64,000 nucleotides of DNA from an uncultured Alphaproteobacteria bacterium (GCA_902607475.1 CACLKH010000001.1:17094-81093); one strand, 5' to 3'. Shown: positions 1,189 through 31,576, numbered from the stretch's first letter. The notes: generated from the sequence alone by a model not told the origin. A program made the numbers and translations.

Positions 1189-1494
1189 TTACACCGCAGA
1201 AAATATTAATCCATTTAATTTATCAGTTATTTTTATTTGGCATGCAAGTCTTGAGTTATTTTTTAAATTTTTTGATAATACTAAAATTTCTTTTTCTTCT
1301 TTAGTTTTTTTTTTAAGTTTATTTAAATGATTAGATAAAATGTATACATGGCATGTTGAACATAGCATCTCGCCTCCACAAGATCCTTCTAAATTTATAT
1401 TATTATTTTTTGACACTTCTAATAAACTTAAACCTTTATTTGCATTGATTAACTTTTGGTTTCCTTTTTTATCTATATGTTTTATTTTTATCAT
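1189..1494 (-). CDS. fdx: [2Fe-2S] ferredoxin, adrenodoxin/Fdx type
   Basis: 101 aa. Cys ligand pattern EGSCGGEMLCSTCHV ... SRLACQ is typical of ISC-type Fdx. Confidence 0.85.
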   Translation of the reverse strand: MIKIKHIDKKGNQKLINANKGLSLLEVSKNNNINLEGSCGGEMLCSTCHVYILSNHLNKLKKKTKEEKEILVLSKNLKNNSRLACQIKITDKLNGLIFSAV

Positions 1495-1506
1495 TAAAAT
1501 TTTATT

Positions 1507-2646
1507 TTATTGATTTAAATTAGTTAAAATTTTTGATATTTTTAAGGCACAATATTTAATTTCTTTTTCTGTATTTTTTTTTCCAATACCTATTCTCAAA
1601 GTAGAACTAGCTTTATTTTTATCTAATCCAATTTCTTTTAAAACATAAGAAGGTTCGCCTGACCCAGAACCACATGCTGAACCAGAAGACAAAGATATAT
1701 CATTAAGTTTTGAAAATAAAAATTCATTTTTAATGTCTGTAAATGTTATATTTATATTATGGTCCACTGTATTTCTTCCATTTAAGAAATAATTTATTTT
1801 TTCTTTTTCTAAAATTTTCAGAAATATATTTCTTAAATTTCTTATTTTTTTTGTCGTTTTTAATCTTTCATTTTCTATCAATTTAACTGCGTGTCCTAAT
1901 CCAACACATAATGCAGTAGGTAAAGTTCCAGATCTTAAACCATTTTCTTGACCTCCTCCAGAAAAAAGTGGGATTAATTTAACATCTTTTCTTTTTTTTA
2001 TAAATATACACCCAACACCTTGTGGACCATGAATTTTATGAGAAGAAAAACTTGCAAAGTCTAAATTTAAATAATTAACATCAAAGCTTACTTTACCTAG
2101 TGATTGAGAAGCATCTGTGTGAAAAAAAATTCTTTTTTTTTTACAAATTTCACCAATCTTTTTTATTGGATGGATGGTTCCAATTTCATTATTAACATGC
2201 ATTATTGAAACTAAAAAAGTTTTACTATTAATTTTTTTCTTTAAATCATTTAGATTCAACTCGCCAAATTTATTAACTTTAAGGTAAGTTATTTTATAAC
2301 CTATTGATTCTAAAAAATTACAAGATTCCAAAATACATTTATGTTCTGTAACGCATGTTATAATATGATTTTTTTTTTTTTGACTAAATGCTAAACCTTT
2401 TAAAACCAAATTATTTGATTCAGTTGCTCCGGATGTAAAAAAAATTTCTTCCTTATTAGCATTAATAGCTTTTGCTATTTTTGATCTAGATAAATTAATA
2501 AATTTATTTGATATCCACCCATGAGAATGAGAATCTGAATGTGGATTACCAAAAATATTTGTTAAAAATGGGATCATCTCCTTATAAACTCTTTCATCAA
2601 TTTGTGTTGAGGCATGATTATCCAAATAAATATTTTTATTTTTCAT
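1507..2646 (-). CDS. cysteine desulfurase, class I (NifS/IscS-like), PLP-dependent
   Basis: 379 aa. PLP-lysine motif SSHKIHGPQGVG and active-site Cys loop SSGSACGSG. Confidence 0.9.
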   Translation of the reverse strand: MKNKNIYLDNHASTQIDERVYKEMIPFLTNIFGNPHSDSHSHGWISNKFINLSRSKIAKAINANKEEIFFTSGATESNNLVLKGLAFSQKKKNHIITCVTEHKCILESCNFLESIGYKITYLKVNKFGELNLNDLKKKINSKTFLVSIMHVNNEIGTIHPIKKIGEICKKKRIFFHTDASQSLGKVSFDVNYLNLDFASFSSHKIHGPQGVGCIFIKKRKDVKLIPLFSGGGQENGLRSGTLPTALCVGLGHAVKLIENERLKTTKKIRNLRNIFLKILEKEKINYFLNGRNTVDHNINITFTDIKNEFLFSKLNDISLSSGSACGSGSGEPSYVLKEIGLDKNKASSTLRIGIGKKNTEKEIKYCALKISKILTNLNQ

Positions 2647-2652
2647 AAATAT

Positions 2653-3195
2653 TTATATTCCGGAACCATCACCAGATGGGTTATCAATAACTCGTGCTGG
2701 AATACCAATAACTGTAGTATTTGATGGCACGTTTCTTGTCACTACTGAATTTGCACCAATTTTTGAGTTTTTACCTACTGAGATAGGTCCTAAGACTTTT
2801 GCCCCAGCTCCAATTATAACATTATCATTAATAGTAGGATGTCTTTTCTTTTTTTCCCATTTTGTTCCACCTAAGGTCACCCCTTGATATATACTAACAT
2901 TATCTCCAATAATAGTTGTCTCTCCTATAACAACACCCATTCCGTGATCAATAAAAATATTTTTACCAATTTTAACTGCTGGATGAATTTCAATTCCGGT
3001 TAAAAATCTTGAAATATGTGATATCATTCTTGCTATTAATTTTAAATTTAATTTCCAAAAAAAATTTGATATTTTATGAAAAAAAATTGCATGTAGGCCT
3101 GGATAGCATGTTAATATTTCTAAATAAGATCTCGATGCAGGGTCTTTTTTTTTATAATTATCTAAAAATTCTTTAAATTTTTTTAAAAACATCAA
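2653..3195 (-). CDS. cysE: serine O-acetyltransferase
   Basis: 180 aa. Left-handed beta-helix hexapeptide repeats ([39 protein letters not shown]). Confidence 0.9.
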
Positions 3196-8374: not shown

Positions 8375-9467
8375 TTAATTTTTTTTAAATAAAGCAGCTT
8401 CTAAAAAAACATCAATATTTCCATCTAAAACTGAATTGCAATTTGATATTTCTGTATTATTTCTAAGATCTTTAACCATTTTATATGGATGCATAACATA
8501 AGATCTGATTTGTCTTCCCCAACCTATCTCTGACTTACTTTGATTTTTTGATTGTTGTTCAGATTCTTTTTTTTGTAATTCAATTTCATAAATCCTTGCT
8601 TTTAACATTGATAGCGCAGTAGCTTTGTTTTTATGTTGAGATCTATTATTTTGACATTGAACTACAACTTTAGTAGGTAAGTGTGTAATTCTAACAGCAC
8701 TATCAGTTTTATTAACATGTTGCCCGCCTGCTCCTGATGCTCTATATGTATCAATTCTTAAATCTTTCTCATTTAAATTGACCTCAATTTTTTCATCAAT
8801 TACAGGATAAATCCAAACTGATGCAAAACTAGTATGTCTTCGTGAATTAGAGTCAAAAGGCGATATTCTAACTAAACGATGAATTCCAGATTCTTTTTTT
8901 AACCAACCATAAGCATAATCTCCATCTATTTTTAGAGTTAAGGATTTTATTCCTGCTTCTTCCCCAGAATTTTCTTCTAAAATTTCAAAATTGAATTTTT
9001 TTTTTTCACACCACCTAGTATACATTCGTACTATCATTTCTGCCCAATCTTGTGCCTCAACACCACCAGCACCTGAATGTACTTCGAGAAAACAACCATT
9101 AGGGTCAGCTTCGCCTGATAAAAAATTTTCAAATTCTTTTTTCCTAACTTTTTCAATTAATTCTTTAGTATTTTTATTTATTTCTGAAATTAATTTTTCA
9201 TCATCATCATTAGTAATTTTAATTAATTCATTTAATTCATCGTATTCTTTTTCTAAACTTAAAAATGAATTCATTCTATTTTCTAAAATATTCTTTTCTT
9301 TGATTATTGACTGAGCCTTCTCTTGATCACTCCAAAAGTTTTCTTTTTGAATAATATCATAAAAAGACTTAATTTTTTTTGAAATATTATCTAAATCAAA
9401 GACCCCCCCTAAGTATTTTTAGTGAAGCCTTTATTTTTAACAAACAATCAAGAATATCTTTTTTCAT
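8375..9467 (-). CDS. prfB: peptide chain release factor 2, expressed via programmed +1 frameshift
   Basis: Frame 0 runs from ATG 9467-9465 and encodes MKKDILDCLLKIKASLKILRGGL, then an in-frame TGA (9398-9396). A +1 shift at CTT-TGA continues DLDNISKKIKSFYDIIQKENFWSDQEKAQS... into the track ORF 8375-9274. RF2 motifs SPF (RISPFDS) and GGQ (SGAGGQHVNK) are present. The joined product is 363 aa. The start overlaps the mrcA stop (TAATG). Confidence 0.93.
9396..9410 (-). promoter_or_regulatory. RF2 autoregulatory +1 frameshift site (internal SD-like G-run + CTT TGA)
   Basis: The minus strand reads AGGGGGGGTCTTTGAT. An SD-like AGGGGG lies 3 nt before the slippery CTT followed by TGA, the same architecture as E. 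coli prfB (AGGGGGTATCTTTGAC). Confidence 0.85.
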
Positions 9468-11890
9468 TAATATAATCCGCCAAGACCTTGTATATCATTT
9501 TTTAATCTACCAGAGGTCTTTTCATTTATATAATCTTTTATTTGAGAATTTGAATTAAATGCTTCTAAAATTACTTCTTTATCATTTTTTTTTGCCAAAT
9601 CTCCAGTTTTTAAATTTATTTTAACCAATTTAGCTTTTGATGGAATTCTAAAAGGTGTGCCTTTCTCATTTTCTAGAGCCAAATACATAAAATCTCTAAA
9701 AATCGGCGATGCAACACTTGCTCCGGTTTCTCTAGGACCTAATGATTTTGGAGTGTCAAAACCAACATAAACACCAACAACTAAATCAGGTGAAAATCCA
9801 ATAAACCATGTATCATTACTATCATTTGTAGTTCCAGTTTTACCTGCAAGAGGTTTTTTGATAACAGAAACTTTTTTACCAGTACCTCTTAAAATAGCTC
9901 CTTCTAACATAGAAACAATTTGATAAGCATTTACGGGATCAATAATTTGTTCCTGACTATTAACAATTTTTGGTTCTAAAGTAGAATCTAGTTCTTCTAT
10001 TTTACAATTTATGCATAACCTATTATCATGTTTTTCAAGGGTTTCACCATTTCTATTTTGTACTCTATCAATTAAAGATGGTGATATTTTTTTACCTCCA
10101 TTTACTAATGTTGCGTATGCTACAGTTAATCTTTCAAGAGTTGTCTCTCCTGCTCCTAGAGCCATAGATAATACCGGATCAATATCATCGCTTATATTAA
10201 GTTTTTTTGCTTTATTAACAATTGATTCAATTCCAATCATTTGCGCTAAACGTATAGTCATTAAATTTCTAGATTTTTCTAAACCTAATCTCATTGTGCT
10301 CAATCCATAAAACTTATTTGTATAATTTGTAGGACTCCATTTTCCTAAATCAGCGCCTTGATCAATTACAAAAGGAGCATCTAAAATTTTTGTATTTGGC
10401 GTTAAGCCTTTTTCAAGAGCTGTTAAATATACAAATGGTTTAAATGCAGAACCAGGTTGTCTAAATGCTTGCGTTGCTCTATTAAATTCACTTTTGCTAA
10501 AACTAATACCACCAGAGACCGCAAAAATCCTTCCAGTATGAGGGTCTAAGGTTATTAAAGCACCGTTAACATCTGGAAATTGCCTAAGATTGTAAAGCGG
10601 CAATTGGCCATATTCAATAAAATCTTCTTTCTCATTCTTGTCTTCAACGTAAATTATATCGCCAGTAACTAAAACATCGTTTGGATGCTTGACTGGCGGA
10701 CCTAAATATTGATTTCTTCTCCATTGTCTTGCCCACTTTAAATCTTTTAAATTAATTCTTCCGTAACTATCATTATCAAAAAAAATATTAGCTCCTAAAT
10801 CATCAACATGTAGAACAATTGCAACTTTCCAATTTGGAAATGCTTCAGGAATAGCGATATTTGCTATATCTCTATTTAAATTTGTTTCTTTAATATTTAC
10901 ATTTGCTAATGGACCTCTCCAACCATGTCTTCTATCATAATTAATTAACCCAGATTTCAATGTCTTATCGGCTATTTTTTGTAAAGCAGGGTCCAATGAT
11001 GTTTTTACAGTAAGCCCACCTTTATACAATTTTTCTTCACCATATTTTTCTACTAATTCTTTTCTAACGTCTTCCAAAAAATATTGTGCTTCAACGGGTT
11101 TAAGTTCTTTTCTATTTACAGTTATTAATTCAGTATTTTTTGCTTTTAAAGCTTGTTCATTTGTAATAATTTTTTCTTGAAGTAATCTTTTTATTACCCA
11201 ATTTCTCCTAGCAATTGCAGCTTTTTTTTTTCTAATTGGATGGTAATTATTAGGAGCTTTGGGTAAAGCAGCAAGAAAAGCAGCTTCTGAAATTGTTAAT
11301 TCATTTAAAGACTTATTAAAATAATTTAAACTTGCTGCCGCTACTCCATAAGATCTGAATCCAAGATAAATTTGATTTAAATAAAGTTCAAGTATTCTAT
11401 TTTTATCTAAAATCTGTTCTATTCTCATTGCTAATAAAATTTCTTTGATTTTTCTTTTATATGACACTTCACGTGATAGAAAAAAATTCTTTGCAACTTG
11501 TTGAGTAATAGTTGATGCTCCCTCTGGTCTTCCTCCAATATTATTAATATTTCTTTTTGCAGCTCTAATGATACTTGTAAAATCAATACCAATATGATTA
11601 TAAAAATTTTTATCTTCAGCTGCTAAAAAGGAATTTATTACAATTTTAGGTACAGATTCTAACGGAACAAATGATCTTTGTTCAGCAGCATATTCTGATA
11701 TTAACCTTCCATTTGAAGCGTAAACTCTCGTAACCATTGGGGGTTCGTATTTAATTAATTGTTCATGGTCAGGTAAATCCAAAACAAAATGCCATATTAT
11801 AAACAATAAAAAAATAAATAGAGCAAATAACGAAATGAATACAGATGTAAATATCGTTATCAGTCTTTTAATAGATTCAGTAGTTTTCAT
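9467..11890 (-). CDS. mrcA: penicillin-binding protein 1A (bifunctional transglycosylase/transpeptidase)
   Basis: 807 aa. N-terminal TM. GT51 motifs (EDKNFYNHIGID, RKIKEILLAMRIEQ). Transpeptidase motifs SAFKP (SxxK) and KTGTT. Confidence 0.93.
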   Translation of the reverse strand: MKTTESIKRLITIFTSVFISLFALFIFLLFIIWHFVLDLPDHEQLIKYEPPMVTRVYASNGRLISEYAAEQRSFVPLESVPKIVINSFLAAEDKNFYNHIGIDFTSIIRAAKRNINNIGGRPEGASTITQQVAKNFFLSREVSYKRKIKEILLAMRIEQILDKNRILELYLNQIYLGFRSYGVAAASLNYFNKSLNELTISEAAFLAALPKAPNNYHPIRKKKAAIARRNWVIKRLLQEKIITNEQALKAKNTELITVNRKELKPVEAQYFLEDVRKELVEKYGEEKLYKGGLTVKTSLDPALQKIADKTLKSGLINYDRRHGWRGPLANVNIKETNLNRDIANIAIPEAFPNWKVAIVLHVDDLGANIFFDNDSYGRINLKDLKWARQWRRNQYLGPPVKHPNDVLVTGDIIYVEDKNEKEDFIEYGQLPLYNLRQFPDVNGALITLDPHTGRIFAVSGGISFSKSEFNRATQAFRQPGSAFKPFVYLTALEKGLTPNTKILDAPFVIDQGADLGKWSPTNYTNKFYGLSTMRLGLEKSRNLMTIRLAQMIGIESIVNKAKKLNISDDIDPVLSMALGAGETTLERLTVAYATLVNGGKKISPSLIDRVQNRNGETLEKHDNRLCINCKIEELDSTLEPKIVNSQEQIIDPVNAYQIVSMLEGAILRGTGKKVSVIKKPLAGKTGTTNDSNDTWFIGFSPDLVVGVYVGFDTPKSLGPRETGASVASPIFRDFMYLALENEKGTPFRIPSKAKLVKINLKTGDLAKKNDKEVILEAFNSNSQIKDYINEKTSGRLKNDIQGLGGLY

Positions 11891-13897: not shown

Positions 13898-14251
13898 TTA
13901 AATTTTCATTTTTTTTCTAATTTTAGTTGCAGATATCTCTTCTATTTCTTTAGATAATTCAATTTGTTCTACTTTCCAACCTACACCTCTGCCATAACAA
14001 ACATTTGTAATATTTGGAACTTTAATAACTTCAAATTTTCCTTCATATTCTTTTAGATTGTTTTCAATATTTTTTTTAACAGTATTAAAATTAAATGGAT
14101 TAGAATCATCTGTGCCACTTGTATCTCTTATCATTATGATAACCTGCCCAGTTCTTTTAAGTATCTCCTTAAATAACGCTTTATGTCCATCATGAAAAGG
14201 TTGGTATCTTCCTAACATAGATGCAGTAGGTTTTTTCCAGTTAATAGTCAT
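13898..14251 (-). CDS. small nucleotidyltransferase of the HxGH / ISxTxxR (cytidylyltransferase/NMNAT-like) superfamily; substrate unknown
   Basis: 117 aa. Carries GRYQPFHDGH and ISATKIR, the two signature motifs of the nucleotidylyltransferase alpha/beta-phosphodiesterase fold. Overlaps the upstream kinase-like gene by 11 nt. Confidence 0.7.
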   Translation of the reverse strand: MTINWKKPTASMLGRYQPFHDGHKALFKEILKRTGQVIIMIRDTSGTDDSNPFNFNTVKKNIENNLKEYEGKFEVIKVPNITNVCYGRGVGWKVEQIELSKEIEEISATKIRKKMKI

Positions 14252-14747
14252 TATTAATCATCCTTTCTTTTATATAATTAGACCAATATTTAGCATTTTT
14301 TGTTGTAATTCTAAAATGAAATTTTTTTGGTTTTTGGAAAATTTTATTTGTATTTTCAAATCTACCTTTTTTTTCTGTATCCATCCAAATAATAATATCA
14401 GGCTTTAGTATTTTTCTTGTTTCATCTAAAGGACAAACAAAATCAGCAAGAGGACTAATTTTTTCTAAATAAATATAGTCAGAAAATCTTTTCATTCTAT
14501 CTGCTTGTCTTATTCGTCCTTCTTTAGAAAAGTCCCAGTCATTAAAATGTTTTCTTATTTCATCTGCATTAAGATGAATAATTGGTATTATTTTTTTTAA
14601 TTCAGTCGACAAACGTGTTTTTCCTGAACCCGGCAGGCCCATAACTAATATTTTTTTAGGTAAAAGGTTTATTTCTTTATTTTTGAATAAAACCCTTTTT
14701 TCAATTTTATTATTTATAAAGTTTTTTTCGTTTTCTAAAATTATCAT
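14241..14747 (-). CDS. adenylylsulfate (APS) kinase-like P-loop protein, divergent
   Basis: 168 aa. P-loop GLPGSGKT. LNADEIRKHFNDWDFSKEGRIRQADR and FVCP align with APS-kinase motifs LDGDNxRxGLxxDLGFSxxDRxENIRR and FISP, with substitutions. Confidence 0.65.
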   Translation of the reverse strand: MIILENEKNFINNKIEKRVLFKNKEINLLPKKILVMGLPGSGKTRLSTELKKIIPIIHLNADEIRKHFNDWDFSKEGRIRQADRMKRFSDYIYLEKISPLADFVCPLDETRKILKPDIIIWMDTEKKGRFENTNKIFQKPKKFHFRITTKNAKYWSNYIKERMINNDY

Positions 14748-14759
14748 ATCTTTTCTTTA

Positions 14760-15032
14760 TTATTTTTTTTTGTTTTTATTAAATATATATTTTTTTAAAT
14801 TTTTCAATTTTTTAGATTTATTCATGCGTTTTCCCCACAAAATATAATTCCATCCTCTTTCATGAAAATAATATAAAAATGTTTTAGTTAATACTTCAAA
14901 CATAGCTATTGTTCCCGCCCAAGAAGGTTTTCCTGTTACAAACCATGCAATAATAAAAGTATCTAAACTTGCAAGCACCCTCCAAGTTATAGATTTTATT
15001 AATGATCTTTTTCTAGAAACTGTATATAACAT
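14760..15032 (-). CDS. DUF2061-like small membrane protein
   Basis: 90 aa with two hydrophobic helices. Motifs KSITWRV ... YYFHERGW match my recollection of DUF2061. Lys-rich tail. Confidence 0.6.
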   Translation of the reverse strand: MLYTVSRKRSLIKSITWRVLASLDTFIIAWFVTGKPSWAGTIAMFEVLTKTFLYYFHERGWNYILWGKRMNKSKKLKNLKKYIFNKNKKK

Positions 15033-15044
15033 ATTTTTTTTTCA

Positions 15045-15764
15045 TTAAATTGTTGGAAAATATTTTTTATCTTCTTTTTCATTTACATGTATTCCGCATT
15101 CACTCTTCAATGAATCAGACCATCTTCCATCTCTAATTGAATCCTTAGTTTTGCTTGTACATGGTTGGCAACCAATTGATTTATAACCTTCAGCAACTAT
15201 GGGGTGTTCTGGTAAATTATTACTAGTCATATAATTTTTAATTTTATTCAATGGCCAATCTGATAAAGGGTTAATTTTTATTAATCCATTAATCATTTCA
15301 ATTTTTTTTAATTTTGACCTGTTAGAGCCATGGAATCTTTTCCTGCCATTTATCCATGCATCATAGTTTTTCATTGACACTCTTAAAGGTATAACTTTTC
15401 TAATATGACAACACAAATTTGGATTAGTTTTATGTAGTTTTCCATTTGGATCATATTTTTTTAAATGATCTTGATTTGGTTTAAATATTTTAATATTAGT
15501 TAAATTTAATTTTTTCCTTATAGTATTTAAATATTTCAACGTTTCAGGAAAAAGTTTTTCTGTATTTAAAAAAATAATAGGAATGTTTTTACTAACTCGA
15601 GATACTAAATGTAAAATTACAGCACTTTCTGCTCCAAACGATGATGTTACTGCTATTTTTTTATAAAAAATATCTTTTATCATAATTCTTAGAAGTTTCT
15701 CAGAATTTAAATTAGAATATTTTTTATAAAAATTTTGAAAATCAAAATTATTGTACTTTATCAT
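15045..15764 (-). CDS. cysH: adenylylsulfate (APS) reductase, thioredoxin-dependent CysH family with Fe-S cysteine signature
   Basis: 239 aa. PP-loop-like SSFGAES, C-terminal catalytic ECGIH. Also the CC (NLCCHIRKVIPL) and CxxC (SIGCQPCT) pairs that mark [4Fe-4S] APS reductases rather than PAPS reductases. Confidence 0.88.
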   Translation of the reverse strand: MIKYNNFDFQNFYKKYSNLNSEKLLRIMIKDIFYKKIAVTSSFGAESAVILHLVSRVSKNIPIIFLNTEKLFPETLKYLNTIRKKLNLTNIKIFKPNQDHLKKYDPNGKLHKTNPNLCCHIRKVIPLRVSMKNYDAWINGRKRFHGSNRSKLKKIEMINGLIKINPLSDWPLNKIKNYMTSNNLPEHPIVAEGYKSIGCQPCTSKTKDSIRDGRWSDSLKSECGIHVNEKEDKKYFPTI

Positions 15765-17448
15765 CTAATACCTCTTTTATTTTTTTAAATTGTGCTTCTG
15801 TGCCAATTCTGTTACAAAAATCACCAAGCATTTCATTATTTTTTCTTTGTTCCTTAAATAACAACAATATTTGTTCTATAGCTTTTGTTAAATCTTGGTA
15901 AGAAACTTTATCCAAAATCTTTTTATTTAATCTTGTTCCTTCAAAATCACCACCTGAAAATAAAGCATAAAGATTTGGAGCCCTTCCAACAATACCTATA
16001 TCTCCAGCGTATGGCCTAGCGCAACCATTTGGGCAACCTGTAATTCTAATACTGAATTTTTCATCTTGTAAATTATGTTTTAATAAAATTTCATCAACTT
16101 TTCTTATTATTTCATCCCTTACCCTTTCTGCTTCAGATAATGCAAGTCCACATGTTGGTAGCGCTGGACAAGCTAGAAACCAACGGTCTACTTTAGATAT
16201 CTTTTTTTTGACAATTGAATATTGTTCTAATAACTGATCTATAATATTTTTATCTTTTTCATTTATATTCCCAAGAATAATATTTTGATCAGTTGATAAT
16301 GTTATTGAAGGATTAAATTTTTTTATTATATCTCTTAAGCCAGTTTTAATTTTTTTATTTTTATTATCTATAATACGACCTGAAGAAATAAATATTCCGG
16401 TGTACCATTTTCCATCACCTTGTTCGTGCCAACCAAGATGGTCTACAACTTTTAAATTATTTAATTTTAAAGGATTATCAAAATTTTTATTTAATTTATA
16501 TTCTATTAATCTTTTAAACCATTTGGTTCCTTCTTCTGCAACTAGATACTTTAAACGGGCATGTTTTCTATTTTTTCTATCACCATAATCTCTTTGAATT
16601 TTTACTATTTGCTCAAGAACTTGAATTAAATCTGATGGGTTACAAAATAATAAGGGCTTCGCTAAGTACGGAAAGGTTTCCGGCTTATTGTGAGTCATAC
16701 CCAACCCACCACCAATTGCAATGTTATAACCTAATAATTTATTATTTTTAAAAATTAAAAAAATAGCAATATCATTTGTCAAAACATCTACTGAATTATC
16801 CCCAGGTATAGTTATCCCAATTTTAAACTTCCTTGGTAAATAAAGTTTACCGTAAATAGGTTCTTTTTTTTCTTTATCTGAATATTCGTACTTATCTCCA
16901 TTTATCCAAATTTGCCCGTAGCTTGTACTAGAAGGAAGAAAATGTGATGAAATTTTTAATGCATCTTGTCTAAGTTGTTTATGGATTTGGTCATTAATAG
17001 GCGCGGCAATTGTTGTAACATTTCTAACAACATCTCCGCATGCTCCATAAGTTGATAAAAGTATTGTTGAAACAGTGTTTATAATTTTTTTTAAATTTCC
17101 TTTTAATACTCCATGAAATTGAATAGTTTGTCTGGTTGTAATTCTTAAAGAAGGATCTGAAAACTTATTTGTTAAATCATCCAACTCAATATATTGTTTA
17201 GAAGTTAACAATCCAGCAGGAATTTTTGTTCTAATCATAAAATAAAATTCTTTTTCTAGTCCTTTTTGTTTCAATTCTGTTGCGGTATCTCTATTATACT
17301 GTTGGTATGTCCCATGAAATTTAAGCAACTGAACTTCATTTTCTTCAAAATAAGGATTTGAATTTTGTAATTGTGACCCTATTTTCCCAGCTAAATAGTC
17401 ACTATCATTTTTAGTTTGTTCAACTTTAGATAAAATTGTGCTGTTCAT
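15748..17448 (-). CDS. cysI: assimilatory sulfite reductase haemoprotein (sirohaem/[4Fe-4S])
   Basis: 566 aa. Two nitrite/sulfite-reductase repeats. Cluster/sirohaem cysteines ACPALPTCGLA and TGCPNGCARP. Overlaps cobA (23 nt) and cysH (17 nt). Confidence 0.9.
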   Translation of the reverse strand: MNSTILSKVEQTKNDSDYLAGKIGSQLQNSNPYFEENEVQLLKFHGTYQQYNRDTATELKQKGLEKEFYFMIRTKIPAGLLTSKQYIELDDLTNKFSDPSLRITTRQTIQFHGVLKGNLKKIINTVSTILLSTYGACGDVVRNVTTIAAPINDQIHKQLRQDALKISSHFLPSSTSYGQIWINGDKYEYSDKEKKEPIYGKLYLPRKFKIGITIPGDNSVDVLTNDIAIFLIFKNNKLLGYNIAIGGGLGMTHNKPETFPYLAKPLLFCNPSDLIQVLEQIVKIQRDYGDRKNRKHARLKYLVAEEGTKWFKRLIEYKLNKNFDNPLKLNNLKVVDHLGWHEQGDGKWYTGIFISSGRIIDNKNKKIKTGLRDIIKKFNPSITLSTDQNIILGNINEKDKNIIDQLLEQYSIVKKKISKVDRWFLACPALPTCGLALSEAERVRDEIIRKVDEILLKHNLQDEKFSIRITGCPNGCARPYAGDIGIVGRAPNLYALFSGGDFEGTRLNKKILDKVSYQDLTKAIEQILLLFKEQRKNNEMLGDFCNRIGTEAQFKKIKEVLDDKVQ

Positions 17449-18259
17449 ATTTTTTTTTATTTTGTTTTAAAAAATTTATATCTTCTTTATTTGTTACATA
17501 CCAATTTAATATTGGACTCAACAAAACATTTTTACCAATCACAAGTAAAGCAGGGCTATCAATTATATTTTTATCAAAATTTTTAGAATAGTTTTCCAAT
17601 GTACTAATTAAAATTTTTTGATCTTTTCTTGTTGCATTTGAAATAATGGCAATATTTTCATACCTGTCTCTACCTCTTTTGATAAGTTCAGAACATACCC
17701 AATTTATTCTCTCTAATCCCATATAAATTACTATTAACTGAGACGTTTTGGTAAAACTAGTCCAATCAACAGTTTCGGGTTTTTCGCCACCTGCTCCGTA
17801 AGCAGAAATAAATGTAATTGAAGTATTGAAATCTCTATGTGTTGCTGGAATACCTGCATAAGCTAAGCCGGCTATTCCAGCTGTTGTTCCTGGAACAACT
17901 TTATAAGGAATTTTGTTTAATTTCAAAGATAATGCTTCTTCGCCTCCTCTACCAAATATAAAAGGATCACCCCCTTTGAGCCTAAGAACTCTTTTATTTT
18001 TTTTTGCTTCATTAATTAATAATTTATTAATTTCTAATTGGTTTATTGATTTTTTATTACCTCTTTTACCTACATAAACTAATTGAACGTTAGGTTTTGC
18101 CAAAGATAAAATTTGTTCATTTAATAAAGCATCGTAAAAAATTATATCGGCCTTTTTTATTGATTTATATGCTAATAATGTAAGTAAGCCTGGATCGCCA
18201 GGACCAGCTCCAACTAACCAAACACTTCCTCTATCAAACCTAGAATCAAAAAGTTGCAT
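17426..18259 (-). CDS. cobA: uroporphyrinogen-III C-methyltransferase (SUMT)
   Basis: 277 aa. VWLVGAGPGDPGLLT, RLKGGDPFIFGRGGEE and VVPGTTAG motifs of CobA / the CysG C-terminal domain. Confidence 0.9.
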   Translation of the reverse strand: MQLFDSRFDRGSVWLVGAGPGDPGLLTLLAYKSIKKADIIFYDALLNEQILSLAKPNVQLVYVGKRGNKKSINQLEINKLLINEAKKNKRVLRLKGGDPFIFGRGGEEALSLKLNKIPYKVVPGTTAGIAGLAYAGIPATHRDFNTSITFISAYGAGGEKPETVDWTSFTKTSQLIVIYMGLERINWVCSELIKRGRDRYENIAIISNATRKDQKILISTLENYSKNFDKNIIDSPALLVIGKNVLLSPILNWYVTNKEDINFLKQNKKKYEQHNFI

Positions 18260-18330
18260 ATATAATAAATTATCAACAAAACTTGGTAAATCAACTTTTT
18301 TTTTGTGAATTATTTTATTTTACATATTTT

Positions 18331-19071
18331 TTATGTAATATTAGATTTTATTAGATTTTGCATTAAATTTTGTATATTTTTATAATTATTTAAGTGATTA
18401 CATAAAATAAATTTCTTTTGATTTTTTTTATTTTTTTCTTTAACAACTGATATTAAATTTTCTAATAGTTTTCCTCTAAATAAAAAAATAGGCAAAATAA
18501 TATATTTATAATTTAAATTTAAGTCTAACAATTCTTGTTTTAAATCTTCTTTATTTAAAGTAATGAGTATTTTTTTATAAAAATTAAATTTATTTTTTTT
18601 TGCAATTTTCTTTGCTAAGAAATTAATTTCAGATATTGCTTTAAAATTTATTGTATAGCTAGCTACAATAATTAAACCATAATCTTTTTTTTTATTTAAT
18701 AATCTTAAAATTTTAAATATATTATTTTGAATCATATTAAAAAAATTTTTTGCTTTTGACAAAGGAGGTATAAATTTTATTTTTGGAATATTTTTATACC
18801 TTTTTTTAAAATTTTTTACAATTTTAGGAATATCTTTAGTAACATGATTTCCTGAAAAAATCATAGCTGGGATTATCAATAAATTGTCAAATTTTCTTTT
18901 AAAAAAAAAATCTAACTGCTTTTTAATTGTTGGTTTTCTAATCTCTAGATATCCAATTTTAATTGTGTATTTTTTATTTTCTTTTTTAAAAGTTTTTAGT
19001 AATTTATTTGTATCTTTTACTCCTTCATTACTTTTTGTTCCATGAAAACAAAGTAAAATTCCTTCTTTCAT
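18331..19071 (-). CDS. CbiX/SirB-like sirohydrochlorin chelatase
   Basis: 246 aa, two-lobe CbiX architecture. The N-lobe keeps the His motifs (LLCFHGTKS; IIPAMIFSGNHVTKDIP). The C-lobe is degenerate, as in SirB. The start overlaps the MAPEG stop (ATGA). Confidence 0.7.
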   Translation of the reverse strand: MKEGILLCFHGTKSNEGVKDTNKLLKTFKKENKKYTIKIGYLEIRKPTIKKQLDFFFKRKFDNLLIIPAMIFSGNHVTKDIPKIVKNFKKRYKNIPKIKFIPPLSKAKNFFNMIQNNIFKILRLLNKKKDYGLIIVASYTINFKAISEINFLAKKIAKKNKFNFYKKILITLNKEDLKQELLDLNLNYKYIILPIFLFRGKLLENLISVVKEKNKKNQKKFILCNHLNNYKNIQNLMQNLIKSNIT

Positions 19072-19478
19072 ACAAAAAATATTTTATAAAGAACTAAAAC
19101 TAAAAGTAAAATACCATTTAGTTGAAGAGAGACAAAAGTTATTATCATCCCAGTTTTACGGTGCATAATTTTTTTTTCATACAAACTTAATGCATGTAAA
19201 ATTCTTCCAATAATAAATAATGAACCCACTATATTGATATATAAAAAATAATATGGGATATTTTCAAAGGCAAGCCACTCAATGCCAATTAATGATAACA
19301 AAAAAATCGGAGTATATTCTATAAAATTGGCTTGAGCTCTTATTCTTCTCATTAATGTTCTGTCACCATCATCTCCTAATGATACTTTACTTTGTCTTCT
19401 TAATTTTATGACGTTAATTGATAATTTACTTAAAATTAGACAAGATAAAGCAATATATATGAATGAATAATAAATCAT
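19068..19478 (-). CDS. MAPEG-family membrane protein
   Basis: 136 aa with about four TM helices. The RRIRAQANFIEYTPIF motif (RxxRAxxNxxE) is characteristic of MAPEG. Confidence 0.65.
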   Translation of the reverse strand: MIYYSFIYIALSCLILSKLSINVIKLRRQSKVSLGDDGDRTLMRRIRAQANFIEYTPIFLLSLIGIEWLAFENIPYYFLYINIVGSLFIIGRILHALSLYEKKIMHRKTGMIITFVSLQLNGILLLVLVLYKIFFV

Positions 19479-19496
19479 GATTTAGACCACCATCTT

Positions 19497-20225
19497 TTAA
19501 AGTTTAGTATTTTTTTTTGCAATATTTTGTAATTCAGGATTTAATCCTGGTAATATCTTTTTTATAACTTTAGATCTAAAATGTTCTCCATGAAAACCAA
19601 ACACAGAATTGATATTCTGTCCATATAAATTTCCAGGATCTTCCATAGAAAAACTTGCAGCAATTGTTGGTGGTGCAAAATTAATTCCTTTTTTTATCAT
19701 CTCTTTATATAAATAATGACAAATAACTATATCTTCAGCTTGCACAGGAAATGTAAGTTTATCAAAATCAATTTCAGAAGTTACTTTTACTAACTTATTA
19801 CTCCTTAAAGAAAAGCCTCCATTACCAACCCTATTTTCATTTAATGATAAAGAATAATTTTCAGGACTAACTATAACCCTATCAGGCCAAGGAGCACCTA
19901 TATAATCATAATTTAAGAACTCATTTTTCCAAAAATTTGGATCAATAACAAATCCATCTGCTTGAATTATTAAACAAAACTTTGTTGTAAAATATTTGTA
20001 TAAATCTTTAATCATGAATCTGCTATATCCTAAATAATCAATTTTAGGAATTGTCACATATTCAATATTAGAAATTTTGTGATTTGGAGGAGTAGGAGAT
20101 AAAAGTTTAATTGAAGAAAATTCAATATTTTCTGATGATATTGACAATGCAAGTTGAGTTTGATCTATATTTACAGAAGTTATAGCTATAAGTGTTATAT
20201 CTGGAAGCGCTACTTTTTTATTCAT
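19497..20225 (-). CDS. DUF5672-like protein (putative glycosyltransferase-related)
   Basis: 242 aa. IIQADGF ... YDYIGAPW ... GNGGFSLRS pattern recalled from DUF5672. Overlaps the upstream GT41 gene by 8 nt. Confidence 0.55.
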   Translation of the reverse strand: MNKKVALPDITLIAITSVNIDQTQLALSISSENIEFSSIKLLSPTPPNHKISNIEYVTIPKIDYLGYSRFMIKDLYKYFTTKFCLIIQADGFVIDPNFWKNEFLNYDYIGAPWPDRVIVSPENYSLSLNENRVGNGGFSLRSNKLVKVTSEIDFDKLTFPVQAEDIVICHYLYKEMIKKGINFAPPTIAASFSMEDPGNLYGQNINSVFGFHGEHFRSKVIKKILPGLNPELQNIAKKNTKL

Positions 20226-22191
20226 TTATTATTTGTTCTATTGAGGACTCAAAATTTTTATAAAAATCCATATCGTTATTAATATAAGAGTTTTTAATTT
20301 GCTCTCTTAAATTATTTCTTAGTTTAGATATAATTTTTAAATTTGCTAATTTTTTTAAAGTTTGAATATATTTATTCTTATCCTTAGCAATCCATTCTGA
20401 TAAACCCACAGATTCTAAAACAGATGCACTTTGTCTGCTAATATAGTTTTTTCCAGTTAATGTAAAAACCGGTACTCCCATACAAATTGCTCCATATGTA
20501 GTTGTTGCACCAGAATAAGGAAAAGTATCCAAAGCTATGTCTATATTATTATAGCATTGAAGGAAATGTTCTTCGTTATCTTGTTTAATGAAAATTATTC
20601 TTTTATGATTAATTTTTTTTTTTTCAAAAAAATCGCAGATTCTGTTTTGAATTTTTTGATTATTTAAAAAATTAAAATATTTAAGATAAAGTTTAGAATC
20701 TTTAAAATTATTTAAAACTTTCTGCCATAAATTTAAAGACTCTAATGAAATTTTTGCCGGGTTATTAAAGCTACTAAAAGATATAAAATTATTCTTTTTC
20801 ATAGGAGATTCTTTTATTCTTGGTAAAAGTTTATTTTCAACTTTAGAAAAATTAAAAAGACTTTTAATTCTAATCAATTTTTCTGATGTTTTCTCTTTTA
20901 TATCTGGAGGATTTAGATAACTATCTGTTATCCAATAATCTAATTCTTTAATATTTGAGCTAGTAATCGGATGAAGGCTTATCTGCTTTGATGCAGATCT
21001 ATAACTTGCAAGCAAAAAACGATTTTTTTCTGTATAACCTCCTAAAAATATTAAAATATCAATATTATTTGAAATAATTAAATTCGAGGCTTCTATATCA
21101 GTTAATTTGTAAATATTTTTCCAAGAGTTAGAATTATTTTTGTACCATTTTGTAATATTATCTTCAAAATTGTTTGAATAATAACAATAAAATTCAAATT
21201 TTTTTTTGTTTTTATTAATAAACAATGAATGGATAACATTGTTTATAGAATGTGTTCTAAAATCAGCGGATACAAAACCTATCCTTATTTTTTTATTATT
21301 TCGAAATTCTATTTTTGTATTTTTTTTTTCTTTATTTCCAAATTTATTTATGTACTGATCAATTATTTTTGATAATGAGTTTTGATCGTAATCGTTTTTA
21401 TATACTTTTGTTATTAATAAATTTCTATAACTTAAACTTTCTTCTTTATTTTTTAAATTAAAACTTATAATTTTTTTAAAAATATCTTCAGCTTCATCTA
21501 ATCTGGATTGCTTTAAATAACATGATCCAAGTAAATTCATTATTTTTTCATTGTCTTTACTTAATTCCATTGCTTTTATTAGACTTTTTTCCGCCATATC
21601 TACTAATCCAGTTGAAAGTTGCATGTCTGCAAGTTGGGTGAAATTTTTATAATTTTCAGGAAATTTTTTTATAATATTAATAAAAGTATTTATAGCTTCT
21701 TCATAATGATTAAGATCTTTTTGTAAATTACCAACTGCGCTCCAAATATCATTGTTATTTTGATTATTTTCTAGTGCTTTTTGAAAGTATTTAAGGGCTT
21801 TGTTTTTATTTTTTAAATGTATCTTATACAAACGTCCTAAATTATAGCTTGCTTTCCAATTATTTGGATTTTTCTCAATTAATGTTTCTAAAATTTTTTT
21901 TGAAATATCGTATCTTTTTAAATCTTCATTTATATTTGAAGATAAATGATGTGCTTCAGTAAAATCAGGTTTCTTTTTTGTTAATAAATTAAGTATTTCT
22001 AATGCTTTTTCTTTTTCGTTTAATCTATTTTTAATAAAAGCTAAATAATATAACAATATTGGATTATTATTATACGGGTAAGAACTATCAGAGTAATTTT
22101 CGATTTCTATCAACGCACTCTTATAATCTTTTCTTTTTATTAAATTAATTATTTTATTTACAAAATCTTTAATCATTAATTTATTTACCAC
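20218..22191 (-). CDS. TPR-repeat protein fused to an O-GlcNAc-transferase-like (GT41, SPINDLY/COG3914) domain
   Basis: 657 aa. The N-terminal half is TPR repeats. The C-terminal half has RIGFVSADFRTHS and DTFPYSGATTTYGAICMGVPVFTLTG. The track start is GTG at 22191; an ATG (MIKDF) at 22176 is an alternative. Confidence 0.75.
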   Translation of the reverse strand: MVNKLMIKDFVNKIINLIKRKDYKSALIEIENYSDSSYPYNNNPILLYYLAFIKNRLNEKEKALEILNLLTKKKPDFTEAHHLSSNINEDLKRYDISKKILETLIEKNPNNWKASYNLGRLYKIHLKNKNKALKYFQKALENNQNNNDIWSAVGNLQKDLNHYEEAINTFINIIKKFPENYKNFTQLADMQLSTGLVDMAEKSLIKAMELSKDNEKIMNLLGSCYLKQSRLDEAEDIFKKIISFNLKNKEESLSYRNLLITKVYKNDYDQNSLSKIIDQYINKFGNKEKKNTKIEFRNNKKIRIGFVSADFRTHSINNVIHSLFINKNKKKFEFYCYYSNNFEDNITKWYKNNSNSWKNIYKLTDIEASNLIISNNIDILIFLGGYTEKNRFLLASYRSASKQISLHPITSSNIKELDYWITDSYLNPPDIKEKTSEKLIRIKSLFNFSKVENKLLPRIKESPMKKNNFISFSSFNNPAKISLESLNLWQKVLNNFKDSKLYLKYFNFLNNQKIQNRICDFFEKKKINHKRIIFIKQDNEEHFLQCYNNIDIALDTFPYSGATTTYGAICMGVPVFTLTGKNYISRQSASVLESVGLSEWIAKDKNKYIQTLKKLANLKIISKLRNNLREQIKNSYINNDMDFYKNFESSIEQIINE

Positions 22192-29074: not shown

Positions 29075-31576
29075 ATGAGTAATATTGTTATTGTAGAATC
29101 CCCGGCGAAAGCCAAGACCATCGAAAAATATCTTGGCCCTGACTATAAAGTCATGGCTAGTATTGGGCATGTTAGAGACTTGCTACCAAAGAATGGGTCA
29201 GTAAATACTGATGAACAATACAAAATGATATGGGAAATTTCTACACAAGGAAAAAAAGTCATCAAAGAAATAGCAGGCGCAATTCAAACCGGAGACAATT
29301 TATATTTAGCAACGGATCCTGATAGAGAAGGAGAGGCTATTTCATGGCACGTTGAAGAAGTGTTAAAAGAAAAAAAAAAATTAGAAAATGTAAATGTTAA
29401 AAGAATTACATTTAATGAAATTACCAAAGAAGCAGTTAATAATGCTATTAACCAACCTAGAGAATTAGATAATGATTTAATTAATGCTTATTTAGCAAGA
29501 AGAGCTCTTGATTTTCTTGTTGGATTTAATTTATCCCCTATTTTATGGCGAAAACTTCCTGGAAGTAAATCAGCTGGAAGAGTTCAGTCGGTTGCTCTTA
29601 GAATTATATGTGACAGAGAAAATGAAATTGAACTTTTTAAACCGGAAGAATATTGGTCTATTGATGTTTTGTTAAAATCTAAAGACAATCAAATATTTAA
29701 ATCCACTTTAAAACAAATAAACGATAAAAAATTAAAAAAACTAGATATTGGCACTGAAACAATAACAAAAGAATATGTGGATATAATTAATTCTAAAAAT
29801 TACAAAGTAGATGAATTAAAATCTAAGGAAGTAAAAAGGAATCCGTATGCTCCCTTTACTACTTCAACGCTACAACAAGATGCAGGTAATAAATTTGGAT
29901 ATTCTGCTGCATCTACAATGGGCAAAGCTCAAAAATTATACCAAAGTGGTTTTATAACTTATATGCGAACAGATAGTATAGTTTTATCAAATGATGCAAT
30001 AAACCAATCTAGAGAATATATAAAAAGTAATTTTGGTGATAATTATTTACCAAGTGAGCCAAGAGTTTATAAATCCAAAGCAAAAAACACACAAGAAGCT
30101 CACGAGGCAATTAGGCCTACTAACATTAGCAATTCTCCTGAAAAAATGAAAAATGAAATTAGCCCAGATGAATTTAAATTATATAAGCTTATATGGAATA
30201 GAACCGTTGCATCTCAAATGAGTAGCGCAATTTTTAAACAAATCACTCTTACTATAAAAGCAAATGATGGCACGGTTCTTTTACAATCTACAGGTTCTTC
30301 TCCTGTATTTGATGGAATGTTAAAAGTCTATAATTACGAAAAAAAATCAAATGGAAAAGAAGATGAAACAAATATTATACCAAATATTAATCCTGGCGAT
30401 GACGTCGAGATTGAAAAAATAATTGATGAACAACATTTTACCCAACCCCCTCCTCGTTATACAGAAGCAAGTTTAGTTAAAAAATTAGAAGAGTTAGGAA
30501 TTGGAAGACCTTCAACTTATGCACCTATTATTCAAGTTTTAAAAACAAGGGGTTATGTAAATATTGAATCAAGAAGAATGTTTCCACAAGATAGAGGTAG
30601 AATAGTTATTGTTTTTTTATCAAACTTTTTTGAAAAATATGTAGATTATGATTTTACTGCAAATCTGGAAGGTAAATTAGATGATATATCAGGTGGAAGA
30701 TTGGATTACATTAATGTATTAGATGATTTTTGGAAAAGTTTTTATAGTTTAATTGAACAAACTAAAGAAATTAGAATTACCGAAGTAATAGATAAGTTAG
30801 ATCATCAATTAGAAGATCATTTCTTTCAACCAAATGAAAAAAATGCGAATCCAAGAAAGTGTCCGACATGTGATAATGGGAGATTAGGTTTAAAACTTGC
30901 AAAAACTGGTCCTTTTGTAGGTTGTTCAAATTATCCAGATTGTAAATACGCAACCCAACTAACTTCTAATATTAATGGAGATAATCAAAATGGTAATGGT
31001 ATTTCACTTCCAAAAGAAATAGGTGTCGATCCAAAAACAAACAAACCAATTATAATAAAACAAGGCCCTTACGGAATTTATATTGAAATGGAAGATAAAG
31101 AAGGAGAAAAACCTCGTAGAGCATCTGTCCCAAAAAATTTACCATTAGAACAATTAAATTTGGAAAAAGCTTCGCAATTATTATCGCTTCCAAGAGAGAT
31201 TGGTACATATCCAAAAAGTAATGAAACAATTATTGCAAATAATGGCAGATTTGGACCTTATTTAAAAGTTGGAGATTATTTTATTTCATTAAAAGAAGAT
31301 GATGTCTATACAGTTGGGGAAAATAGAGCAATTGATTTAATCGAAAAACATTTTCAAAAAATAGAAAAACAAACAATAGGTACACATGATAATAAAGAAC
31401 TTAGTGTAAGTAAGCGCGGTAGAATTGGTTATTTTTTGAAAAATGGCACAACAAGCATAAGAGTTCCAAATGAAATAGACGCAAAAACAATAAGTTTAGA
31501 AAAAGCAATTGAATTAATCGAAATTAAAAAAGAAAAAGATAAAGCAAAGAAAAAAAAACCTAAAAAGAAGAAGTAA
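29075..31576 (+). CDS. topA: DNA topoisomerase I
   Basis: 833 aa. Toprim domain (IVESPAKAKTI, DPDREGE), active-site Tyr context ITYMRTDS, one Zn ribbon (CPTCDNG...CSNYPDCKY), Lys-rich C-terminus. Confidence 0.95.
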   Translation: MSNIVIVESPAKAKTIEKYLGPDYKVMASIGHVRDLLPKNGSVNTDEQYKMIWEISTQGKKVIKEIAGAIQTGDNLYLATDPDREGEAISWHVEEVLKEKKKLENVNVKRITFNEITKEAVNNAINQPRELDNDLINAYLARRALDFLVGFNLSPILWRKLPGSKSAGRVQSVALRIICDRENEIELFKPEEYWSIDVLLKSKDNQIFKSTLKQINDKKLKKLDIGTETITKEYVDIINSKNYKVDELKSKEVKRNPYAPFTTSTLQQDAGNKFGYSAASTMGKAQKLYQSGFITYMRTDSIVLSNDAINQSREYIKSNFGDNYLPSEPRVYKSKAKNTQEAHEAIRPTNISNSPEKMKNEISPDEFKLYKLIWNRTVASQMSSAIFKQITLTIKANDGTVLLQSTGSSPVFDGMLKVYNYEKKSNGKEDETNIIPNINPGDDVEIEKIIDEQHFTQPPPRYTEASLVKKLEELGIGRPSTYAPIIQVLKTRGYVNIESRRMFPQDRGRIVIVFLSNFFEKYVDYDFTANLEGKLDDISGGRLDYINVLDDFWKSFYSLIEQTKEIRITEVIDKLDHQLEDHFFQPNEKNANPRKCPTCDNGRLGLKLAKTGPFVGCSNYPDCKYATQLTSNINGDNQNGNGISLPKEIGVDPKTNKPIIIKQGPYGIYIEMEDKEGEKPRRASVPKNLPLEQLNLEKASQLLSLPREIGTYPKSNETIIANNGRFGPYLKVGDYFISLKEDDVYTVGENRAIDLIEKHFQKIEKQTIGTHDNKELSVSKRGRIGYFLKNGTTSIRVPNEIDAKTISLEKAIELIEIKKEKDKAKKKKPKKKK

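Follow-up and report, generated by a model that had tools for sequence, protein, structure and literature searches.

A sulfite-reduction operon with a candidate sulfate-activation module in an AT-rich marine alphaproteobacterial clade

The adenosine 5'-phosphosulfate (APS) reductase route of alphaproteobacteria and mycobacteria, for which the CysH proteins of Mycobacterium tuberculosis and Pseudomonas aeruginosa can serve as references, is recognised by a CysH with the motifs CC...CxxC and ECG(I/L)H, by a sulfite reductase (CysI/Sir) with NIR_SIR repeats and cluster cysteines, and by sirohaem enzymes encoded alongside. The same features are found in a run of eight genes at positions 13898-19478 of a 64,000-nucleotide stretch of DNA from an uncultured Alphaproteobacteria bacterium (GCA_902607475.1, CACLKH010000001.1:17094-81093; this whole stretch is called the window below), where cysH is followed by genes for a DUF2061 protein, an APS-kinase-like protein and a very small nucleotidyltransferase. 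The reading that we favour, with moderate confidence, is that an operon inherited within the source clade combines APS-type reduction with a non-canonical activation tail, which together would cover every step from sulfate to sulfide.

Textbooks describe streamlined ocean bacteria as auxotrophs for reduced sulfur, and cultured Pelagibacter strains, reportedly since the work of Tripp et al. in 2008, are said to be without assimilatory sulfate reduction genes and to need exogenous reduced sulfur. Neither a sulfite reductase nor cysH has been reported in SAR11 proper, and in cultured SAR11 cysC is present while sat and cysDN are not (PMC5069961). The clade represented by the window, which is likewise AT-rich and widespread, keeps APS and sulfite reduction at a fixed site, so that this auxotrophy belongs to particular lineages and is not a cost of streamlining in general.

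Genes for APS and sulfite reduction

All eight open reading frames (ORFs) are intact, lie on the minus strand from 19478 to 13898, and are tightly packed, with overlaps of 4, 23, 17 and 11 nt and gaps of 12, 12 and 71 nt. An earlier note made from the sequence alone had described such a minus-strand run, from a MAPEG protein to the nucleotidyltransferase, and had read it as leading from APS through sulfite to sulfide. Every ORF and family in that run is borne out by Pfam and NCBIfam searches, and the functional reading is upheld by the families and motifs of CysH and CysI.

CysH (15045-15764, 239 aa) is a thioredoxin-type APS reductase with a [4Fe-4S] signature, matched by PF01507 (145 bits) and NF002537 (252 bits); TIGR02055 scores 161 bits, under its cut-off of 235. 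Its motifs CCHIRK and GCQPCT hold the four cluster cysteines (CC...CxxC), and ECGIH holds the C-terminal catalytic cysteine. Because both cysteine pairs have aligned counterparts in the M. tuberculosis APS reductase (7lhr) but none in the Vibrio 3'-phosphoadenosine 5'-phosphosulfate (PAPS) reductase (6vpu), and because all three motifs are kept in 32 of the 34 full-length clade homologues, CysH should accept APS. Its assignment to the Fe-S type, which would use APS rather than PAPS as substrate and yield sulfite, is thus strongly supported by these comparisons.

The next step, from sulfite to sulfide, is assigned with similarly strong support to CysI (15748-17448, 566 aa), an assimilatory sulfite reductase haemoprotein that matches NF010029 with 708 bits (cut-off 457). 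It contains two stretches each of PF01077 (177 bits) and PF03460 (94 bits) and carries the C-x5-C and C-x3-C cluster ligands as ACPALPTC and GCPNGC; it scores 399 bits against the maize ferredoxin-dependent sulfite reductase (5h8v) and 364 bits against Escherichia coli CysI. An exact look-up of its sequence matched no record. Gene searches in the source organism covered the window, and no CysJ-like gene was found there up to 57459, nor beside cysI. Since no CysJ is linked to cysI, a ferredoxin is probably the electron donor of CysI. A gene for a 2Fe-2S ferredoxin, a possible donor, is present in the window at 1189-1494; it stands in a row (1189-3195) with genes for a hexapeptide acetyltransferase (CysE-like) and a class-V aminotransferase of the cysteine desulfurase type. 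The block may also be used for sulfite only, released from organosulfonates, which had been put forward as an alternative when the block was first described.

Sirohaem for CysI would come from the two enzymes encoded upstream. CobA (17426-18259, 277 aa; TIGR01469, 276 bits), which is 69-86% identical in relatives by tblastn, is a uroporphyrinogen-III C-methyltransferase (SUMT) whose methylase domain, PF00590, spans residues 13-222; it has no dehydrogenase or chelatase domain and is a stand-alone SUMT. CbiX (18331-19071, 246 aa; PF01903, 93 bits) belongs to the CbiX-long or SirB-type sirohydrochlorin ferrochelatases. Its best solved relative, Bacillus subtilis SirB (5zt7), aligns over the full length (1-242), and the HG(T/S) and ..H..DIP motifs are kept. 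The supply of sirohaem to CysI by CobA and the SirB-type CbiX is strongly supported by these matches. The claim that the block has its own sirohaem branch holds for the SUMT and the chelatase; it does not extend to a precorrin-2 dehydrogenase, as no such domain was found within the block.

Expression of cysI is hinted at by contigs from assemblies of marine RNA libraries that match parts of the gene at 95-100% identity, with at most a few mismatches. Among them are 151-nt pieces, at 16321-16471 and 16383-16533, that show no differences, as well as cDNA contigs at 16247-16401 and 16803-17112. The evidence is modest, since DNA may have been carried over. The earlier note had named pseudogenised or unexpressed genes as a potential refutation; the genes are intact. 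Two spikes in RNA-assembly depth, at 17330-17609 and 18310-18449, were not taken as expression; the latter consists of 31-33-nt pieces with three mismatches each.

Inheritance of the block and its host lineage

Species-representative genomes were scanned with CysI, and seven loci (L001-L007), on contigs from seven species and with 74-84% CysI identity, were obtained. By tblastn, two of these (L003 and L004) show the order CbiX-CobA-CysI-CysH-DUF2061-kinase-nucleotidyltransferase, followed by rne, a penicillin-binding protein PBP1A, release factor 2 (RF2) and a YhdP-like gene. The block order of the window is also found in L006, with gatB upstream, and in L005 and L007 up to the contig ends, while L001 and L002 are short contigs with parts of it; the shared order with its flanks (rne, PBP1A, RF2) is thus seen in L003-L007. 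In the window, the RNase E/G gene (rne) is convergent with the block, which ends 5 nt short of it. The conserved unit is cbiX-cobA-cysI-cysH-DUF2061-kinase-nucleotidyltransferase, and parts of the block occur also in MarineAlpha6 bins 2, 4, 5 and 6.

Identities to the relatives are 60-94% for block proteins and 70-91% for flank proteins and vary in parallel from locus to locus. The GC content of the block, 0.24-0.29, is like that of the rest of the window (~26%). CysH identity falls from at least 58% within the clade to at most 49% outside it, and the named homologues below this gap (43-49%) are all from Alphaproteobacteria, including Oceanicaulis, Rhodobacteraceae, Rhizobiales, Micavibrio and Paracoccus, plus one titled only Pseudomonadota. 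From the shared position, the co-divergence with the flanks, the window-like GC and the gap in CysH identity, we conclude that the unit is likely to have been vertically inherited within an AT-rich marine alphaproteobacterial clade of MarineAlpha6 type. What weighs against this part of the reading is that the relatives were collected through CysI, and relatives without the block would be missed.

It had been suggested in the earlier note that the block looks accessory rather than core and that, if the genome is of SAR11 type, the block was either acquired or retained there against expectation; phylogenies of cysH and cysI were proposed as a way to look for non-vertical ancestry. Recent acquisition as an island, bringing a new sulfur physiology to a SAR11 cell, would suit the absence of cysH and cysI from cultured SAR11, the tRNA-Ser gene about 2.8 kb upstream of the block, and the variation among relatives of the upstream MAPEG, DUF5672 and TPR-GT41 genes. 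However, the block keeps a fixed position and co-diverges with its flanks in several species, it shows no compositional break, no integrase or repeat is present among the annotated neighbours, and the nearest CysH proteins outside the clade are alphaproteobacterial and only 43-49% identical. The relatives are moreover labelled MarineAlpha6, which is listed apart from Pelagibacterales. Synteny, GC and CysH homologues thus give no sign of recent horizontal transfer, and because of the synteny and composition the island is rejected as a largely refuted and very improbable reading. The accessory status falls with the synteny and the GC content, and the element of surprise is weakened by the same-position block in relatives and by their MarineAlpha6 labels. 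A lineage with cysH and cysI throughout had been named in the same note as grounds for refutation, and the loci of the seven CysI-fetched relatives, with the MarineAlpha6 bins, point to a lineage that regularly has both.

The MAPEG-family membrane protein (19068-19478, 136 aa; PF01124, 63 bits), whose gene overlaps the start of cbiX by 4 nt, was considered as a member of the unit and ruled out by its absence from the relatives' loci; it probably lies outside the functional unit because it is not conserved there. MAPEG, DUF5672 and TPR-GT41 have no tblastn counterpart in L001-L007. The genes for these proteins, the last a glycosyltransferase, occupy a variable spot of the window (19068-22191) between tRNA-Ser(GCT)/gatB and cbiX, where L006 holds other ORFs (425, 465, 83 and 332 aa); this stretch from gatB/tRNA-Ser to cbiX is the only variable one.

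Two groups of CysH are seen in the clade, one of the window/L002 type (74-95% identical to the window) and another at 58-66%, while CysI stays at 74-84% throughout. CysH would accordingly be either faster-evolving or exchanged inside the clade.

The source lineage is probably of MarineAlpha6 type and not true SAR11, so that any clash with the observations of Tripp et al. is weak. Relatives of the block carry the names Alphaproteobacteria bacterium MarineAlpha6_Bin2 and Pelagibacteraceae bacterium SP38/SP2998, and kinase and DUF2061 homologues come from MarineAlpha6 bins 4, 5 and 6, with adjacent locus tags in Bin4. Pelagibacterales, HIMB59 and MarineAlpha6 to 9 are given in a preprint as separate AT-rich lineages. 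A second preprint places the fast-evolving marine groups of metagenome-assembled genomes (MAGs) of Martijn et al. beside HIMB59 and Rickettsiales-type lineages, not Pelagibacterales, and a third paper treats several MAGs called Pelagibacteraceae as HIMB59 relatives. The GC content of the window (~26%) lies below the published SAR11 range of 27.6-35.9% and also below the AEGEAN-169 range. The population is common in seawater: metagenomes from at least 10 studies contain 36-51% of the sampled words of 14000-19000.

Beyond the block, genes are tightly packed all along the window. The 807-aa ORF beside rne (9467-11890), first taken for topA, is by its domains the class A penicillin-binding protein PBP1A (transglycosylase and transpeptidase), and topA is the 833-aa ORF at 29075-31576. 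The RF2-like gene (8375-9274; PCRF and RF-1) begins at position 41 of the PCRF profile, and its match in L004 is split over two frames, a pattern that fits the usual programmed frameshift of prfB. No riboswitch was found before the operon by Rfam, which matched only two tRNAs, and a scan for promoters and terminators remained at chance level (69 sites versus 64.5 expected).

The kinase-nucleotidyltransferase pair

The kinase (14241-14747, 168 aa) is a divergent, lid-shortened, APS-kinase-like P-loop protein that matches PF01583 only in part (profile positions 5-93 of 152, 24.5 bits). A search with it gave 5270 relatives, and a profile of its family matches APS kinases first in the PDB (2yvu, 3e-9; PAPSS1, 8e-8). 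For an AlphaFold2 model of high predicted confidence (pLDDT 91), Foldseek lists nothing but APS kinases and APS-kinase-like domains among the top 46 matches, with query-based TM-scores (TMq) mostly about 0.6-0.75. The family invariants DFS..GR.RQ..RM and FVCP parallel the CysC substrate motifs FS..R..R and F(I/V)xP, and shorter relatives, 53-59% identical, are encoded in surface-glycan islands, where a sulfotransferase gene follows directly or is close by in three independent settings. By profile and predicted fold the protein is an APS kinase, and from fold, motifs and sulfotransferase partners the family is predicted to produce PAPS.

Its partner (13898-14251, 117 aa) is a minimal HxGH/ISxTxxR nucleotidyltransferase, with the motifs FHDGH and ISATKIR. 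It is matched only by PF01467 and by models for nicotinamide mononucleotide (NMN) adenylyltransferase (NMNAT) and phosphopantetheine adenylyltransferase (PPAT), which places it outside the ATP-sulfurylase (PF01747) and CysD/CysN families. An AlphaFold2 model (pLDDT 93.5) shows an NMNAT/PPAT-like core without the usual substrate-binding end, and a very small substrate would fit this missing end. Invariant residues of the family are G14, H23, G87, R88, G91 and R112, and the family-specific ones beyond HxGH and ISxTxxR include R42 and Y86-G87-R88; R42 and R88 are possible contacts for a small anion. A limited literature search found no paper describing this family.

An exhaustive search of the family gave 1446 clusters, and 57 of the 150 best cluster representatives are kinase-nucleotidyltransferase fusions, with about ten more truncated ones. 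Such fusions also account for the 258-261-aa proteins among the kinase relatives. In P0285 the nucleotidyltransferase is fused to a complete canonical CysC (212 bits) and in P0251 to DUF2061, and further single fusions combine it with DUF4118 and the kinase, or with a DHHA1 phosphoesterase-like domain. By tblastn, the nucleotidyltransferase and kinase are conserved in the relatives as well as or better than CysH.

A scan of metagenomes yielded 80 loci, 73 of them with a callable nucleotidyltransferase ORF. The kinase is fused to it in 27 and adjacent in 33 (60/73). Seven loci are co-directional sulfotransferase-kinase-nucleotidyltransferase cassettes. When the common SAR11-type site is set aside, 43 loci give 100 co-directional neighbouring proteins, and the commonest Pfams among these are Sulfotransfer_3 (9), 2OG-FeII_Oxy_5 (8) and Sulfotransfer_1 (8), and APS-reductase_C/AprB (2) and Sulfotransfer_2 (2) also occur. 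A SAR11-type apr locus (L068:831-5985) reads TENA/haem-oxygenase-like protein, mini-nucleotidyltransferase, 264-aa protein, AprB, AprA, 116-aa gene and TauE, with the unnamed 264-aa protein at the AprM position between the nucleotidyltransferase and AprB; two more loci (L069 and L077) follow this order up to aprB, where both end. The nucleotidyltransferase of this type of apr locus occupies the place of sat in many sulfur oxidisers. The small 2-oxoglutarate-Fe(II) oxygenase PF13759 is present in four of the seven sulfotransferase cassettes (L034, L039, L064 and L080) and in one fusion locus (L098).

DUF2061 (14760-15032, 90 aa; PF09834, 78 bits), a two-helix membrane protein, stands between cysH and the kinase in all six of the relatives' loci that reach past cysH (L001, L003-L007). 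The literature on it concerns iron/Fur regulation in Caulobacter and Shewanella only and makes no link to sulfur. One metagenome contig of 40961 bp (Ga0222713_10000592) encodes kinase, mini-nucleotidyltransferase, a 256-aa gene and DUF2061 (L088:5597-7342), and it is probably viral because a family-B DNA polymerase lies directly downstream, which suggests that the kinase/nucleotidyltransferase/DUF2061 module moves as an auxiliary gene set. T4-like phage contigs (L027 and L028, with gp13 and neck-protein genes) also have a DUF2061 gene, with a sulfotransferase two genes on (L027:4001-6961).

Since the nucleotidyltransferase is habitually fused to APS kinase and is found beside APS reductases of both kinds, it most simply makes or uses APS. 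ATP sulfurylase itself lies within the nucleotidyltransferase superfamily. Given the fusions and neighbours, and a chemistry shared with ATP sulfurylase, in which an oxyanion attacks ATP at its alpha-phosphate, the 117-aa protein is proposed as the APS supplier: it would move AMP from ATP onto sulfate and so work like ATP sulfurylase, as a functional analogue and not as a member of that family. The resulting APS would feed both CysH and the kinase, which would turn part of it into PAPS for sulfation, with DUF2061 as a possible membrane tether or partner of the activation pair. We tentatively extend this proposal to the family as a whole, as a possibility on which we place somewhat less weight than on the operon itself: the 115-135-aa HxGH proteins may be a third class of sulfate adenylyltransferase that, with a lid-less APS kinase as a separate protein or fused to it, makes up a miniature PAPS synthase. 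Here it would feed an APS reductase, in SAR11-type genomes it would fill the "missing" place beside AprBA and sulfotransferases, and viruses would carry it.

Several findings weigh against this reading. In fold the nucleotidyltransferase is nearest to NMNAT and PPAT, at weak E-values no better than 0.001, and ATP sulfurylase is absent from its top 50 fold matches. The kinase has LNAD at the place of the magnesium motif LDGD, and its lid is shortened by about 30 residues. Tight packing of unrelated genes is also usual in streamlined genomes. The pair has cysH or cysI beside it in none of the 80 metagenome loci, which makes this linkage specific to the window's clade, and SAR11-type copies mostly have Rieske/peptidase genes on one side and enoyl-CoA hydratase genes on the other, away from any sulfur gene, a site that is uninformative on the function of the pair.

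These last points would agree with an ordinary APS/sulfite operon whose tail genes are mere neighbours, with APS made elsewhere by a canonical Sat/CysDN, or by AprBA acting on sulfite from organosulfonates. Such an arrangement, which we regard as unlikely, draws on the tight packing throughout the window, the non-sulfur surroundings of the pair in most SAR11-type loci, its separation from cysH/cysI in the metagenomes, and the cysD and cysN reported in HIMB59. The tail genes would in that case work in PAPS-dependent sulfation or in a process that does not involve CysH. Against this stands the trio that follows cysH in every relative's locus long enough, with gaps of 12 nt and an overlap of 11 nt in the window; the pair is also at least as well conserved as CysH, and its other contexts likewise belong to APS/PAPS chemistry.

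The nearest sequence and fold relatives of the nucleotidyltransferase, namely archaeal NMNAT, NadM and PPAT, raise the further possibility that the pair is a split cofactor-salvage enzyme with no part in sulfur metabolism, as both NadR (NMN adenylyltransferase and ribosylnicotinamide kinase) and coenzyme A (CoA) synthase (PPAT and dephospho-CoA kinase) unite an HxGH transferase with a P-loop kinase. This is rendered quite improbable by a kinase that is APS-kinase-like, not NadR- or CoaE-like, in its top 46 folds and best profile matches, by the fusion with canonical CysC, by neighbours enriched in sulfotransferases and AprB, and by a nucleotidyltransferase of 117 aa, as opposed to 150-170 aa, without the C-terminal region used for NMN or pantetheine binding. 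An activation pair that supplies APS and PAPS therefore stays the preferred reading.

Comparison with known systems

This operon is the third independent context that ties the mini-nucleotidyltransferase to APS chemistry, after the sulfotransferase cassettes and the aprMBA loci. If the protein is indeed an ATP sulfurylase, sulfate activation has evolved in a third way, surveys that use sat and cysDN as marker genes undercount sulfate assimilation, and the long-noted lack of sat beside aprBA and cysC in SAR11 is explained.

The pair resembles the metazoan PAPS synthases (PAPSS1/2) and bacterial Sat-CysC fusions in coupling an adenylyl-transferring HxxH-type domain to an APS-kinase domain and in its association with sulfotransferases, and, as in PAPSS, the kinase comes first in the fused relatives. 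It differs in that the transferase is a 115-135-aa NMNAT/PPAT-like domain, as opposed to a module of about 390 aa with PUA and ATP-sulfurylase (PF01747) domains, in its shortened lid, and in that the activity is here a predicted one.

Separate genes for a SUMT (CobA/SirA) and a CbiX/SirB-type chelatase, as opposed to a multifunctional CysG, are like the SirA/SirB/SirC system of Bacillus, and CbiX of Paracoccus is reportedly an alphaproteobacterial ferrochelatase, as Bali et al. are said to have described in 2014. Unlike the Bacillus system, the block contains no SirC or Met8-type precorrin-2 dehydrogenase; the oxidation of precorrin-2 may depend on a dehydrogenase encoded elsewhere or, in an aerobe, may be non-enzymatic.

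The window shares with cultured SAR11 an AT-rich, tightly packed marine genome, and SAR11-type contigs have the same families of short "cysC" kinase and mini-nucleotidyltransferase. It is unlike SAR11, whose strains are reported to be without cysH, cysI and cysJ (Tripp et al. 2008; Smith et al. 2016, PMC5069961), in that cysH and cysI occupy a fixed position in its clade. While the APS-reductase route described at the outset is matched by CysH, CysI and the sirohaem genes, the operon departs from it in having no CysDN, CysNC, Sat, CysJ or DUF934 partner and in the three small unusual genes that follow cysH. The reduction block is thus an ordinary, inherited alphaproteobacterial APS-reductase pathway, and what is unusual is the module that closes it, with its proposed non-canonical way of activating sulfate.

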